From Candidatus Bathyarchaeota archaeon (GTDB taxonomy: Archaea; Thermoproteota; Bathyarchaeia; Bathyarchaeales; Bathycorpusculaceae): a DNA stretch of 64,000 nucleotides. The DNA lies in contig CAVTBV010000001.1 in the NCBI GenBank assembly GCA_963733095.1, positions 96,001-160,000 on the forward strand, written 5' to 3'. This document shows positions 21,441 through 61,814 of the stretch, piece after piece. The notes under the pieces are model-generated. The model had not been told where the DNA came from and searched no databases. It saw nothing but the letters and a program-made list of their open reading frames with translations. The first letter of the stretch is position 1. The number at the start of each line of letters is the position of its first letter. Position numbers and translations under genes: made by a program.

Positions 21441-22880
21441 TTATTCTGTGTGGACTCTATATAAGTCTACGTCTTCGCGCATGCTGGGTGTCAGTTCTAA
21501 GAAGTCTCGTACTGATCGTTCGATGTCTTTAGATTGTGTAACGTATCTGCCGACGATGAGTATATCTGCGCCTTGATCTAATGCTTCTTTTGCTGTTTCT
21601 GGGACGATTCCGCCCGCGACTGCAATCAGCAACTTTTTGCCTGGGAAGGCTTGGCGTATCATCTTTATTCGTTCTAGTCCGCAGCTTCTACCGCTTTCTT
21701 GGTCGATTCCCCTGTGTAGGATGACGATGTCTGGAAATTCTTTGATTGATTTCAATTTGCCAAGGACATCTTCAACGTTTAGCATGTCGATGACTGCGTA
21801 GATTCCTAGACGTTTGGCTTCCTGTACCGTTGCATCTAACGTCTCTGGTGGTGCTAGGCCGGCTGCAACAACTGCATCTGCGGTGTCTTCGTATGCTATG
21901 TCTACTTCAACTTTGCCAACGTCAAGGGTTTTTAGGTCGGCTATGATGAATTTGTCTTTGGCTATTTTGCGTAGTTCGTTGATGCCTCTTGTGCCGTAGC
22001 GTTTGATTAGTGGGGTGCCGACTTCAAGGATGATTCTGTCGCTTCCTGGCAGTGCCTCGATGACTTTCTTTGCTCCTTCAAGTGAGGGTGCATCAAGTGC
22101 AATTTGGAGGTATGGTGGTCTCCATAGGCGTGGAACTTTGAAGCCCATGATTGGGTGCTTTGAGCGGTCTTTCTCGTAGATTATCTTTTCCAGCGTTGGA
22201 TATTGCTTTAGTGCACGTTTTAGAGCCATTTTTGTTGCGCCATAGTTGTACTGGTATATCTTGCGAAAATCGGCTGCTTTCGGATGGATGAAAACGCTAC
22301 AGATGATAACCCATTCGTCTAGTTTGTTTGCTGGAATGATTCCTTCTTCGGCTGAGTCAGCGATGGCTTTTGCAACTGCGGCTTGTGCTGGACCGAAAAT
22401 TTTGCCTGTGTCCTCCATGTTTTTGATGGTCACTTTTGGCACGATTAGTGTGTGGGGTTTTGGAGGCAAGTTAGGTCTGATTACTGCAAGGACTGGTGTG
22501 TGGCCGGCTGATAGTTGTGTCATGCCGTTTGCGAATGCTTGTCCGATGGGTCCGTTTTTGTCGCCTATCATGAGGTCAATGTGTGCAACTTCGTTTCCTT
22601 CTCCAAGAAGCGATTCACCGATTAGGTAGGTGGGTCCTGAATCTTCCTCTACATCGTCAGCTATTGTCGGCATATGGTCAGCAATCTCTTTGAAATCGAC
22701 ATTGAACTCCTTTAACCAGGAATAAAGTGTGTCTCTGTGAATATCCATTTCTTTCGCGGTTCCGATGACTGTCGGTTTTGTCGGCTTTCCTTTAGAGCCA
22801 ACCTCTTTTTTTGCGGCTTCTGTTAGCATTTTTATAAATATTTCACGTGTTTCTGGCTTTTTGATGTCTGTTCCCGACAT
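21441..22880 (-). CDS. fae-hps: Bifunctional formaldehyde-activating enzyme / 3-hexulose-6-phosphate synthase with extra N-terminal HTH
   Basis: Fae: GEGNEVAHIDL, GHTPVLAVIRPNL, GPAQAAVAKA, YNYGAT; Hps: LQIALD, EVGTPLIK, DLKTLD, HRGIDQE, VAGGI. Confidence 0.92.
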   Translation of the reverse strand: MSGTDIKKPETREIFIKMLTEAAKKEVGSKGKPTKPTVIGTAKEMDIHRDTLYSWLKEFNVDFKEIADHMPTIADDVEEDSGPTYLIGESLLGEGNEVAHIDLMIGDKNGPIGQAFANGMTQLSAGHTPVLAVIRPNLPPKPHTLIVPKVTIKNMEDTGKIFGPAQAAVAKAIADSAEEGIIPANKLDEWVIICSVFIHPKAADFRKIYQYNYGATKMALKRALKQYPTLEKIIYEKDRSKHPIMGFKVPRLWRPPYLQIALDAPSLEGAKKVIEALPGSDRIILEVGTPLIKRYGTRGINELRKIAKDKFIIADLKTLDVGKVEVDIAYEDTADAVVAAGLAPPETLDATVQEAKRLGIYAVIDMLNVEDVLGKLKSIKEFPDIVILHRGIDQESGRSCGLERIKMIRQAFPGKKLLIAVAGGIVPETAKEALDQGADILIVGRYVTQSKDIERSVRDFLELTPSMREDVDLYRVHTE

Positions 22881-22937
22881 TGTATTTTCCTCGGTCGCTC
22901 TTTGAGGGGTATGTTATATATAAAAATGTCGGATACA
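22869..22937. promoter_or_regulatory. fae-hps promoter: TATA box flanked by inverted AATGTCGGNNACA sites
   Basis: + AATGTCGGATACA 22925-22937 and - AATGTCGGGAACA 22881-22869 around TTATATATAA. Confidence 0.5.
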
Positions 22938-59187: not shown

Positions 59188-60611
59188 ATGCCAGACAGAA
59201 AAATTCTACTCAAAGAAAACGACATACCAAAACAATGGTACAACATCGTGCCCGACTTGCCTCATCCTCTCCCACCCTTCATAGATGTGGCGACTAAACA
59301 GCCAGGCGTCGGCATCGTCCCCCAGATTTTCCCCAAAGAAATCATCGGACAAGAAATCAGCCAAGAGCGCTGGATAAACATCCCTGACGAAGTCCGCGAA
59401 GTCTACAGAATCTGGCGCCCAAGCCCGCTCTTCCGAGCACTCGGCCTGAGAAAGCACTGAAAACTCCCGCTAAAATCTACTACAAGTATGAAGGCGTCAG
59501 TCCAGCCGGCAGCCACAAACCCAACACTGCCGTGCCGCAGGCGTTCTACAACATGAAGGAAGGAATCACAAGGGTAACAACAGAAACAGGGGCTGGACAA
59601 TGGGGTTCAGCTTTATCGTTCGCAGCAGGCGTCTTCGGATTAGAAGCTACCGTATACATGGTGCGCGCAAGCTTTGACCAAAAACCCTACCGCAAAATGA
59701 TGATGAACGCATACGGTGCAGAATGCATCGCAAGTCCCAGCAACCGAACCGAGGCAGGCAGAAAAATCCTTGCTGAAGACCCAAACAACAAGGGCAGCTT
59801 GGGCATCGCCATTAGCGAAGCCGTTGAAGACTCCTTAACCAGTCTGGAGAAAAACGGCAAAAAAGCCAACTATACCATAGGAAGTGTCTTTAACCACGTC
59901 TGCATGCACCAAACCGTCGAAGGTTTAGAAGCCAAAAAACAGCTCGAAATGGTCGACGACTACCCCGATGTGGTTTATGGTTGCATCGGCGGCGGAAGCA
60001 GTTATTCGGGTCTTATGTGGCCTTTCTACTATGACCAGGTCACCAAGAAGGCTCCGAAAGAAACCAAGTTTGTTGCCACGGAAGCGACGGCTTGCCCCAA
60101 AGTCACTAAAGGAATATACCAATATGACCACGGTGACACTGCCAAAATTACACCGCTCGTGCCCATGCACACCCTGGGGCATGACTTCATTCCCGCGCCC
60201 ATCCATGCGGGGGGACTCCGCTATCACGGTATCGCCCCAACCATCAGCGTATTGGTCCAGGAAAAGAAGATGACAACCGAAGCCTACAGCCAAATAGAAG
60301 TCTTCGACGCCGCCAAACTGTTTTTGCGAACCGAAGGCATAATCCCCGCACCCGAACCCTCCCATGCAATCAAAGGCGCCATTGACGAAGCCCTGCGATG
60401 TAAGCAAACTGGCGAAGCAAAAACCATCCTGTTTGTGCTCTGCGGACACGGCTTTTTTGACATGGCAGCGTATGATGAATACTTCAGCGGTAGACTCGAA
60501 CCTTACGAGTACCCGACAGAGAAAGTCGCTGAATCCATGGATAAACTACACAAACTCTACCCATGGCTAAACGATGTCAACAAGAAATACATCGGCTGCG
60601 AGACGTACTAG
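59188..60611 (+). CDS. trpB2: Tryptophan synthase beta-like TrpB2; one -1 frameshift near 59448
   Basis: WYNI..WRPSPL.RA.GL / [46 protein letters not shown]. Confidence 0.9.
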
Positions 60612-60683
60612 CTTCGCAGATCACATCTTTTCTTATTTTTGTTTTTATTTATCGCCCGCTTATACTAGACAAGGCTATCTACG

Positions 60684-61814
60684 TTGACTGAAAACTTGTT
60701 ACCGACAAAAACTGTCGGATTCATCATTAACCCAGTTGCAGGCATGGGTGGCGCTGTCGGATTAAAGGGCACAGACGGTATAGCAATCCTAAATCAAGCT
60801 ATAGCCCTTGGCGCCAAACCCATTGCAACGCAAAGAGCAGAAACCTTCCTTGCCATACTCAGCCCAATGAAGAACAGTCTCAACCTAATTGTTGGTGCAG
60901 GCGACATGGGGCAGAATCAAGCCGAAAAGTGTGGTTTCACCTTCAAAGTTGTCGGAGAAAATAAGAAAGAAACCTCATCCGAGGACACACAAACAGTTGC
61001 CAAAGATATGGCTGAAGCCAAAGTGGATTTGCTTGTTTATTGTGGCGGCGACGGAACAACTCGTGATATAATGAAAAGTGTCGGATTACGTGTTCCTGTA
61101 CTTGGAGTTCCGACAGGCGTCAAGATGCACAGTGCCCTTTTTGCCGTAAGCCCCCAAGCTGCCGCAAGAGTTTCCGTCACTTACCTTTGGAGTAACTTAC
61201 CGCTTCGAGAAGCAGAAGTCATGGATGTGGATGAGGTTGCGTTTAGGCAGGGGAATCTGTCGGCTGAACTCTATGGGTATCTGCTAAGCCCCTTTGAGCC
61301 TCACTTGATTCAGGGTAACAAGATGGCAAGCCCCATGACTGAAAACGAAGTGGAAAACCAAGCTGCCATCGCCATCAACATAATCGAAGAGATGAAACCC
61401 GACACGATCTACATCATAGGTCCAGGCACAACCACTCGAACCATCAGCGACCTCTTAGACCAGAAAAAAACCTTGTTAGGCGTTGACCTCTTCCAAACCA
61501 AAAAAATAATCCTGAGGGATGTTAGCGAAAAACAGATTCTGGAAGCCACAGAAGGAAAAACCGCCAAAATAATTGTGACGCCGATTGGAGGGCAGGGCTT
61601 TATTTTCGGCAGGGGCAACCAGCAGATAAGCTCCAAAGTGATCCGTCAAGTGGGCATGAACAATATCATCGTAATATCGACGAAGAGCAAGCTGGATCGG
61701 CTGGAAAGCTTAAGAGTCGACACTGGGGACCCAGAATTGGATGAGCAGTTTCGGACAAAGGGAACCATAGCCGTAGTTGACTACAAAACGATTAAGGAAA
61801 TGAAAATCGAATAA
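60684..61814 (+). CDS. ATP-NAD kinase-like family protein
   Basis: NPVAGMGG.VGLKGTDG, GGDGT.RD, GVKMHS, TLLGVD, GRGNQQ. Confidence 0.85.
   Translation: MTENLLPTKTVGFIINPVAGMGGAVGLKGTDGIAILNQAIALGAKPIATQRAETFLAILSPMKNSLNLIVGAGDMGQNQAEKCGFTFKVVGENKKETSSEDTQTVAKDMAEAKVDLLVYCGGDGTTRDIMKSVGLRVPVLGVPTGVKMHSALFAVSPQAAARVSVTYLWSNLPLREAEVMDVDEVAFRQGNLSAELYGYLLSPFEPHLIQGNKMASPMTENEVENQAAIAINIIEEMKPDTIYIIGPGTTTRTISDLLDQKKTLLGVDLFQTKKIILRDVSEKQILEATEGKTAKIIVTPIGGQGFIFGRGNQQISSKVIRQVGMNNIIVISTKSKLDRLESLRVDTGDPELDEQFRTKGTIAVVDYKTIKEMKIE

Follow-up and report, generated by a model that had tools for sequence, protein, structure and literature searches.

A helix-turn-helix domain fused to the formaldehyde-handling enzyme Fae-Hps in Bathyarchaeia, and candidate sites for it at the promoter of its own gene

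The DNA analysed here, in the following called the window, is a stretch of 64,000 nucleotides from a Candidatus Bathyarchaeota archaeon of the Bathycorpusculaceae (assembly GCA_963733095.1, contig CAVTBV010000001.1, positions 96,001 to 160,000). Its minus strand encodes a protein, here called HTH-Fae-Hps, in which a putative helix-turn-helix (HTH) domain precedes a formaldehyde-activating enzyme (Fae) as well as a 3-hexulose-6-phosphate synthase (Hps). Short inverted DNA words surround the TATA box and the start codon of the gene, and comparison with related genomes suggests that they are sites for the protein's own HTH. Archaeal Fae-Hps enzymes split hexulose-6-phosphate to ribulose-5-phosphate and formaldehyde and load the formaldehyde onto tetrahydromethanopterin (H4MPT). 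By homology, HTH-Fae-Hps would likewise catalyse the condensation of formaldehyde with H4MPT and the aldol reaction of hexulose-6-phosphate. The locus has the following features:

21441..22880, minus strand: coding sequence of the HTH-Fae-Hps protein, 479 aa, an open reading frame (ORF) including the stop codon, assigned by Pfam and NCBIfam.
22674..22880, minus strand: putative N-terminal DNA-binding domain, residues 1-69, with helices at residues 12-30, 38-44, 49-58 and 63-69, based on AlphaFold2 (AF2), the alignment, the ratio of nonsynonymous to synonymous polymorphism (pN/pS) and hhalign.
22707..22769, minus strand: HTH core, residues 38-58, with the nearly invariant GTAK..IHRDTLY.W and a putative recognition helix at 49-58.
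22629..22673, minus strand: variable acidic linker, residues 70-84, predicted to be disordered and unconserved in the alignment.
22146..22628, minus strand: Fae domain, residues 85-245 (PF08714, TIGR03126, PDB 1y5y with E 4e-42).
21504..22115, minus strand: Hps domain with the OMPdecase fold, residues 256-459 (PF00215; PDB Hps chains 9lj9, 3f4w and 3ajx).
22927..22932, minus strand: site 1, CCGACA adjoining the TATA box in the position of the TFB-recognition element (BRE), a comparative assignment.
22914..22926, minus strand: TATA box, a T5-ATATATAA run, with TTTATATA/TTTAAATA kept directly after site 1 in the anchored alignment.
22889..22892, minus strand: Shine-Dalgarno-like GAGG, 9-12 nt before the ATG, where the anchored alignment has a G-rich block.
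22874..22879, minus strand: site 2, TGTCGG over the start codon (A-TGTCGG-G, read as Met-Ser-Gly), 53 nt from site 1 and in inverted orientation to it.
22770..22784, minus strand: sites 3a and 3b, CCGACA twice (22779-22784 and 22770-22775), in the codons for Pro-Thr of the KPTKPT peptide, which immediately precedes the HTH.
22665..22670, minus strand: site 4, CCGACA in linker codons (Met-Pro-Thr), 262 nt after site 1.

A Pfam scan of the 479-aa protein placed Fae at residues 87-245 (PF08714, E 1.1e-69) and the OMPdecase/Hps domain at residues 256-459 (PF00215, E 1.6e-34). The NCBIfam model of the complete enzyme, NF009833, reached 574 bits against a cut-off of 274, with model positions 2-390 of 392 lying on residues 85-478. 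Since this alignment begins at residue 85, the 84 N-terminal residues are extra to the known Fae-Hps family, whose members begin at the Fae domain; in HTH-Fae-Hps, 84 conserved residues come first. The initial annotation, made from the letters of the window, had described about 80 additional residues with an HTH pattern, joined by an acidic linker to Fae and Hps domains. The 84 residues indeed hold the stretch that it quoted, Pfam and NF009833 confirm the two enzyme domains, and the linker is disordered in the AF2 model. The Fae-Hps enzymes of methanogens (NF009833/PRK13307; for instance that of Methanosarcina barkeri) share both catalytic domains in the same order, but the known family has neither the HTH-plus-linker extension nor the operator-like sites, both of which are features of the window gene. 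For the methanogen fusion, conversion of formaldehyde to methylene-H4MPT and a proposed role in ribose-phosphate synthesis are described in a passage of PMC5244752 that cites Goenrich et al. 2005.

Comparison and modelling indicate that the N-terminal residues form an HTH domain that is real and translated. The peptide of 29 orthologues begins with the same Met/Val-Ser, both start and peptide are conserved, and a common motif is visible (KKPxxxEEF ... KPT..GTAK....IHRDTLY.W.KEF.V.F). A search of 41 related genomes revealed full-length matches including residues 1-84 in the same genus and in other families of the order, with 64-71% identity. Among eight members of the genus, pN/pS was 0.24 in codons 3-69, compared with 0.11 in the enzyme part; purifying selection acts on residues 1-69. 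AF2 run on the alignment predicted helices at residues 12-30, 38-44, 49-58 and 63-69 with a mean predicted local distance difference test (pLDDT) score of 75 and values of 81-90 in the core. The full-length model contained the same four helices and showed residues 71-81 as disordered (pLDDT below 50), so that both independent runs yielded a bundle of three helices, the second and third separated by a short turn. Moreover, contigs of relatives from four RNA-library runs (85-99% likeness) span the Fae-coding through the HTH-coding part unbroken, and one piece reaches 22893, 13 nt before the ATG; such contigs attest presence in RNA libraries rather than a mapped transcript, and the bins past 22896, which are without cover in the four runs, say nothing about the transcript end. 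The initial annotation had raised the question of a start further downstream. It is scarcely credible that the true start is Met-70 or a later codon and that the upstream "domain" is an untranslated leader. One public gene call in a relative, 423 aa long and starting inside the HTH region, would agree with such an artefact. However, in all orthologues examined the frame is open, the peptide is conserved from a fixed start and a Shine-Dalgarno-like block precedes it; the pN/pS value of the HTH codons also contradicts a leader, as does the finding that the N-terminal profile detects homologous HTH domains in other proteins. The upstream start is thus upheld. No conserved cysteine was found in the N-terminal alignment. 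Any sensing would therefore have to run through the enzyme domains, and direct formaldehyde chemistry on the HTH appears unlikely.

The DNA words stand out already within the window. The 13-mer AATGTCGGNNACA occurs exactly twice in the 64 kb, at 22869-22881 (minus strand) and 22925-22937 (plus strand); the two copies are inverted and flank the TATA run. Shuffling gave an expectation of 0.02, and none of 100 shuffles reached two copies. Altogether, five TGTCGG/CCGACA hexamers lie within 268 nt (22665-22932), of which those at 22770, 22779 and 22665 read TGTCGG on the plus strand. Thus, the inverted sites bracketing the TATA box, one of them over the start codon, exist as initially described, and so do the TGTCGG words at 22770 and 22779, which coincide with the Pro-Thr codons of the KPTKPT peptide.

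For a survey of these words, one locus per genus was taken from 40 further genera and combined with order-level loci and the window locus. A script placed 45 loci; it dropped six others (L117, L120, L123, L126, L129 and L142), in which both sites are visible by eye. [C/A]CGACA was found 1-4 bases before the TATA box in 44 of the 45 genus-level loci (41 with CCGACA, three with ACGACA). In 37 of these 44, TGTCGG follows 51-55 nt downstream of site 1 and always lies on the start codon, as (A/G)TG-TCG-G..; spacings of 51, 52, 53, 54 and 55 nt occur in 5, 5, 15, 11 and 1 loci, respectively. The anchored alignment revealed no conservation beyond the hexamers, the TATA box and the G-rich Shine-Dalgarno block, and the flanks are unalignable. 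Upstream of site 1, 12 loci of family f1 (families are labelled f1-f34) carry an extra CCGACA at -52 to -54, and families f6 and f7 carry TGTCGG at about -31 and at -74 to -85. Downstream, recurrent copies are CCGACA at +148 to +171, and either CCGACA at +262 to +276 or TGTCGG at +285 to +289. Many of these words lie in codons. The codon pair CCG-ACA before helix 2, which forms the copies at +148 to +171, is present in 25 of 45 loci, compared with 7.7% expected from the Pro/Thr codon usage of the same genes. At site 2, the codon of Ser-2 is TCG, which makes up 15% of the other Ser codons in these genes. In the variable linker (+240 to +310), 25 of 44 loci carry a hexamer in one of three reading phases (coding PT, SDT, (L/V/M)SE or xVG), where about 1.5 loci would be expected at random by our own arithmetic from the hexamer odds. 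The codon bias and the three reading phases thus argue that the DNA words are kept at the nucleotide level. Where the word at the TATA box is ACGACA, as in three lineages, the upstream partners read TGTCGT, a concordant change. Of the motif as initially proposed, the core (T)CCGACA/TGTCGG(R) is kept, but its NNACA tail is lost outside close relatives, and the same fate befell the palindrome ATGTC-N7-GACAT at the start codon.

As controls, we used 35 Fae-Hps loci from families or genomes that lack this HTH and two second copies in which it is missing or degenerate, 37 in total. CCGACA or ACGACA before a TATA-like run was found on either strand in none of the 37, whereas 38 of 40 HTH-type loci had the promoter site in the same comparison; HTH-type loci contained 6.2 hexamers per kb, controls 0.34. 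Three loci illustrate what happens when the domain is lost or decays. In G159, which belongs to the genus of the window and has a single Fae-Hps, an in-frame deletion joins residue ~12 to the Fae start SGPTYLIGE, and both sites are altered, to CCGGCA before the TATA box and to ATGTCAGG at the start. The second copy in G006 has lost the HTH; that in G017 has helix 3 changed from IHRD to IQLD. Neither copy has sites, and both read ATGTCT at the start, so that Ser-2 is encoded by TCT. Across these loci, the sites co-occur exclusively with the HTH domain, and the three natural losses or decays of the domain have lost the sites as well. The co-conservation of motif and fusion that the initial annotation wished to see surveyed accordingly extends across about 45 genera, and loci without the HTH lack the motif.

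In an even draw of 401 Bathyarchaeia genomes, 127 encode the HTH domain (f1, 94 of 103; f6, 10 of 11; f7, 18 of 18; f3, 2 of 2; f2, 1 of 1; f19, 1 of 2). It is nearly always present in one copy per genome, the degenerate second copy of G017 mentioned above being an addition, and nearly all copies lie in open frames of about 480-610 aa, i.e. they are fused to Fae-Hps. Fae-Hps itself exceeds the NF009833 cut-off in 219 of the same 401 genomes. Other Bathyarchaeia carry Fae-Hps frames of 448-488 aa with two further types of N-terminal extension. One is a 55-aa ribbon-helix-helix (RHH) domain, for which Pfam RHH_1 gave E values of 5e-4 and 1.5e-3 (20.3 and 18.9 bits, just below the cut-off of 20.5). 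RHH-type Fae-Hps is encoded in 40 of the 401 genomes (f24, 30 of 71; f21, 5 of 6; also f15, f18, f33 and f34), and a search of the HTH families for the RHH N-terminus found it absent; one weak match lies in a 189-aa frame that is not Fae-Hps. Twelve RHH loci were examined (L174, L175, L177-L181, L184, L186-L189). Seven of eight f24 promoters among them read GTGACAC, about 45 nt, GTG(T/A)CAC-N5-GGTCACA, 10-12 nt and TATA, while the eighth (L184) has a variant third word; the f21 promoters read GTGACAC ... GTGTCC-N5-GTGTCC ... TATA. The other extension, a second HTH type known from two loci in f17 (L162 and L185), matched Sigma70_ECF region 4 over its cut-off (22.7 bits) and several HTH families below theirs; the promoters contain TGCGGCA/TGCCGCA repeats, one of them directly after the TATA box. 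Hence, three DNA-binding domains that appear unrelated or distantly related are predicted on the same enzyme, each with promoter repeats of its own, which is our strongest argument that the fused domain reads the promoter.

The HTH of the window protein appears to be homologous to that of the gp3-type small subunits of phage terminases. Pfam gave sub-threshold matches at residues 41-60 to HTH_28, HTH_29 and HTH_23. A search of 1.84 billion representative proteins with the HTH profile returned 108 matches at E<=1e-3. Besides pieces of the same fusion, they comprise terminase small subunits of the gp3 type and proteins with several HTHs in tandem. Alignment of the N-terminal alignment with 12 gp3-type proteins by hhalign gave 98.9% and E 1.1e-17 over 44 columns, which cover Pro-Thr, helix 2, the turn and helix 3; since the set was picked from hits of the query profile, this test is partly circular. 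Three proteins of the set (P0046, P0049 and P0056) were scanned and reach the thresholds of the Pfam family GP3_package (PF16677). The HTH core and the preceding Pro-Thr align with those of the gp3-type subunits, whereas the C-terminal part of gp3 is absent from the window protein and the enzyme stands in its place. Gp3-type packaging proteins bind DNA as oligomers. A sequence search of PDB chains with the HTH profile gave best E values of at least 0.17, to the phage protein 2ao9 and the NtrC-family HTH 4l5e, and is unusable on its own; the matches listed by Foldseek are mostly HTH DNA-binding proteins or sigma factors, none of them significant. Together, the AF2 helices and the hhalign result answer the fold question posed in the initial annotation in favour of an HTH.

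The HTH unit also occurs in other contexts among the representative proteins. P0017, a protein of 153 aa, has the same N-terminal domain (E 6.6e-23, with the KKP and KPT..GTA..HRDTLY motifs) and an unrelated C-terminal part without a Pfam family; the domain has thus recombined at least once more. P0016, P0020, P0027, P0029 and others contain 6-8 tandem copies of a related HTH unit. A seemingly stand-alone form, an 89-aa frame in G025, turned out to be merely cut by the contig end.

We consider it likely that HTH-Fae-Hps binds its own promoter and is thus an autoregulating fusion of enzyme and regulator. Autoregulation, as suggested in the initial annotation, is strongly supported by the comparative evidence, namely the sites in 44 of 45 loci with the HTH and in none of 37 controls, and their joint loss. 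It would be this HTH that binds the sites, with each domain reading one half-site of 6-7 bp, TGTCGG(R)/(Y)CCGACA. On the gene's own promoter, one half-site would lie at the BRE against the TATA box, one 53 bp or five helical turns downstream over the start codon, and more within the first ~270 bp of the coding sequence; in other genera, further ones lie 53 bp, or ~31 and 75-85 bp, upstream. Fae is a pentamer, and solved Fae entries contain five chains each (PDB 1y5y/1y60); Hps folds are dimeric. An oligomeric Fae core with dimeric Hps folds would carry several HTHs per particle on flexible linkers of ~15 residues, so that one particle could grip several weak half-sites at once and bridge them. 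Because 53-bp steps up- and downstream of site 1 equal five turns, the sites would face the same side of the DNA, and the TATA box would lie between sites 1 and 2. Occupation of the BRE/TATA flank and the region after the start would then block TFB, TBP and RNA polymerase, resulting in negative autoregulation. Given the usual archaeal distance from TATA box to transcription start, site 2 would lie ~15-20 nt past that start, where binding should repress; the effect is therefore probably repression rather than activation. Occupancy of the enzyme domains may modulate the binding, and by analogy with RbkR, PutA and BirA (see below), a modulation by substrates or products of Fae and Hps is plausible. 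More tentatively, all parts may be joined into a self-wrapping "repressosome", in which HTHs acquired from a viral terminase small subunit, attached by flexible linkers to a core of pentamer or decamer size, grip 53-bp-phased half-sites over ~340 bp, from upstream of the promoter into the HTH-coding DNA; hexulose-6-phosphate, ribulose-5-phosphate, formaldehyde or H4MPT would loosen the grip, and the same solution would have been reached three times, with the HTH, the RHH and the second HTH. As a joint claim, this picture is rather doubtful.

Several points weigh against autoregulation by promoter binding. Its support is comparative throughout, and the genomes are related and all metagenome assemblies, so that counting per genus lessens but does not remove their non-independence. 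The start-codon site is missing in seven of the 44 loci, and L022 reads CCGGCA at the TATA box yet keeps the HTH. No Pfam HTH family is over its threshold on the window protein (best HTH_28, 18.0 bits against a cut-off of 25), Foldseek gave no significant match in the PDB (lowest E 0.67), and the hhalign figure carries the circularity mentioned above. Part of the conservation of the coding sites is at the protein level, because the Pro-Thr before helix 2 is also conserved in the terminase relatives. With 1107 occurrences in the 2.8-Mb genome, the hexamer is close to its mononucleotide expectation, and specificity would have to come from multivalency. A spacing of 53 bp is unusual for HTH proteins and corresponds to ~180 Å of straight DNA, so that bridging needs bending or long linkers. 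Finally, RNA-library contigs cannot show the transcription start, which is placed here by the usual distance from the TATA box.

Three other explanations of the sites deserve consideration. The same binding could have the opposite sign if the HTH-enzyme next to the BRE recruited or stabilised TFB and TBP, the downstream sites only adding affinity. Archaeal activators usually sit upstream of the BRE, and many genera do have extra sites there (CCGACA at -52 to -54 in the 12 loci, TGTCGG at about -31 and -74 to -85); the promoter with CCGACA also has no obvious purine-rich BRE. However, the sites with the best conservation lie over the BRE position itself and over the start codon, which is downstream of any plausible transcription start, and occupation of the BRE and of the region after the start is the arrangement of repressors in known archaeal systems. 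Moreover, an enzyme that both releases and traps a toxic intermediate would gain no homeostasis from positive feedback alone, and we regard positive autoregulation as unlikely. It is still less probable that a separate, unlinked transcription factor binds CCGACA/TGTCGG and that the fused HTH does another job, for instance keeping the enzyme attached to the nucleoid or a partner. The assignment of the sites to the HTH is comparative, and a further dense cluster of the hexamer on contig 9 of G000 (10 copies in ~500 nt) speaks for a separate factor. Such a factor is difficult to reconcile with the joint gain and loss of sites and HTH (0/37 without the HTH, 38/40 with it) and with G159 of the same genus, where the HTH is deleted in frame and both sites are changed. 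Nor would it account well for the two other DNA-binding N-termini, each accompanied by a different promoter motif, which would hardly be expected of fused domains that have nothing to do with the promoters.

The remaining explanation, control at the RNA level, is very improbable. Here, AUGUCGG at the start would pair with a downstream CCGACA(U) in the mRNA and hide the start codon, and the DNA words would be by-products; the start-codon word and the downstream coding words are in fact reverse complements within the same transcript. Yet the most conserved word, at the TATA box, and the upstream words are not part of any plausible transcript, three loci with a changed start word (ATGTCGAG, ATGTCGAA and GTGTCGAG) keep the downstream CCGACA and show no compensating change, and the loop would measure 90-110 nt for a stem of 6-7 bp. 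Binding of HTH-Fae-Hps to its own promoter thus continues to be the explanation that we favour.

Whether the protein has further targets was addressed by genome-wide searches, which do not support the C1 regulon considered in the initial annotation. CCGACA-N1-3-TTWWATA occurs in three places of the 2.8-Mb genome; each genome of 40 relatives has 0-3 hits, with overlapping ones at a site counted separately. The fae-hps promoter is the recurring one, and a backwards-read control pattern likewise occurs 0-3 times per genome. Palindromes of the form CCGACA-N3-7-TGTCGG were found in 11 of 41 genomes, compared with eight of 41 that have the control pattern, and their places are not orthologous. The other well-formed CCGACA-plus-TATA site (L193:736-749, i.e. 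G000 contig 9, 81235-81248) is followed after 40 nt by a 61-aa ORF and after 220 nt by a 333-aa ORF, which by eye is HisG-like (ATP phosphoribosyltransferase); the identical 14-mer is present in five close relatives only. The third place lies at a contig start. The palindromes are at control level, and no conserved second target of HTH-Fae-Hps was found among promoter-type sites, short-spacer palindromes and an NAD-kinase-like gene. The latter, an ATP-NAD-kinase-family gene at 60684-61814 (plus strand), has eight CCGACA/TGTCGG hexamers within 60513-61404, including a perfect CCGACA-N5-TGTCGG palindrome at 60702-60718 in codons 7-12. It was rejected as a regulon member because its orthologues hold six and six hexamers in the two closest genomes and then 0-3, i.e. 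the enrichment is lineage-specific.

With respect to metabolism, the G000 genome (95% complete) encodes methenyl-H4MPT cyclohydrolase, and the H4MPT route is thus present. A dedicated 6-phospho-3-hexuloisomerase over the cut-off of the model used was not found in this 95%-complete genome; the best match is a double-SIS frame of 398 aa with 66.5 bits against a cut-off of 160.

Fusions of enzymes and regulators are already known as a kind. In the trigger enzymes PutA (RHH and proline dehydrogenase), BirA (HTH and biotin ligase) and NadR, an N-terminal DNA-binding domain represses the own operon. HTH-Fae-Hps resembles them in that an enzyme and a predicted DNA-binding domain share one polypeptide and that comparative genomics points to a cognate operator at the own promoter (44/45 versus 0/37), and the RHH-type Fae-Hps of other Bathyarchaeia families parallels the RHH of PutA. 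It differs in having no sequence relation to the three proteins, an archaeal BRE/TATA promoter and an enzyme of C1 and pentose metabolism. HxlR and FrmR are separate formaldehyde-responsive regulators that sense via cysteine, HxlR controlling the hps-phi operon of Bacillus. Like HTH-Fae-Hps, both are tied to formaldehyde-handling genes, but Pfam and NCBIfam scans gave no match of the window protein to their families, and its HTH has no conserved cysteine. RbkR is an archaeal riboflavin kinase fused to a winged-HTH regulator, with operators predicted by comparative genomics, including that of its own gene, and with ligands of the enzyme domain that tune DNA binding (PMC5397151). RbkR, too, combines an archaeal enzyme and a DNA-binding domain in one chain; its enzyme and its DNA-binding fold are different, and it controls a multi-gene regulon. 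The sites of HTH-Fae-Hps are on its own promoter only, as half-sites spread at ~53-bp steps instead of a single compact operator. A search of the full-text literature, with supplements and subscription journals outside its scope, found no description of a DNA-binding Fae-Hps, neither of the HTH nor of the RHH type. The HTH-Fae-Hps case was thus not found in print.

In the species-genome collection, 341 related loci were confirmed; public records of 80 of them say Candidatus Bathyarchaeota/Bathyarchaeia (some Bathy-6) or Candidatus Bathycorpusculum, and relatives are named only [quoted passage not shown]. Our analysis corrects these annotations, which name the enzyme only, and the one gene call that cuts off the HTH domain. 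In sediments, peat and soil, Bathyarchaeia rank among the most abundant uncultured archaea, and to our knowledge almost nothing is known about gene regulation in them. For this class, a testable regulator-operator pair can now be proposed, with the protein, the half-site, the positions relative to BRE, TATA box and start codon, natural losses as controls and two independent analogues. With it, a central and archaeal enzyme of C1 and pentose metabolism would join the few fusions of enzyme and regulator. It also suggests direct feedback on the step that releases and traps formaldehyde in pentose synthesis. A widely spaced array of half-sites would, furthermore, be an unusual operator layout. If the "repressosome" picture were true, the level of Fae-Hps would be a control point of the balance between pentoses and formaldehyde in an abundant uncultured class.

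The hexamer cluster outside the window comprises 10 copies in ~500 nt (L192:1719-2215, i.e. G000 contig 9, 179718-180214), in the order one TGTCGG, one CCGACA, three TGTCGG and five CCGACA, without a longer repeat unit. It is located in an ORF-free stretch of 830 nt that adjoins a 456-aa ORF with a weak match to Phage_integrase (E 2e-4, below the cut-off). Rfam gave no match at E<=0.1 for the cluster or for the second TATA-type site, and a terminase-like gene was rejected as its explanation because a profile search of the genome matches the fae-hps HTH only. The cluster may represent a second array of binding sites, or else some element of a mobile region without any relation to HTH-Fae-Hps.

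Fae domains were also encountered in other fusions. In G025, a domain of the DHDPS family (dihydrodipicolinate synthase-like aldolase; residues 6-292) is followed by a Fae domain (residues 334-491; L033:1489-2973, minus strand). DHDPS-Fae-like frames of 493-544 aa are also present in G026, G029, G032, G036, G037 and G039, and these genomes encode HTH-Fae-Hps as well. Moreover, chain B of PDB 8ub7, deposited as "Avd" (290 residues), matches the Fae domain with residues 124-286 (E 8e-42). The match extends to 45 chains in nine PDB entries, 8ub7 and eight more, and looks like a Fae segment joined to Avd.

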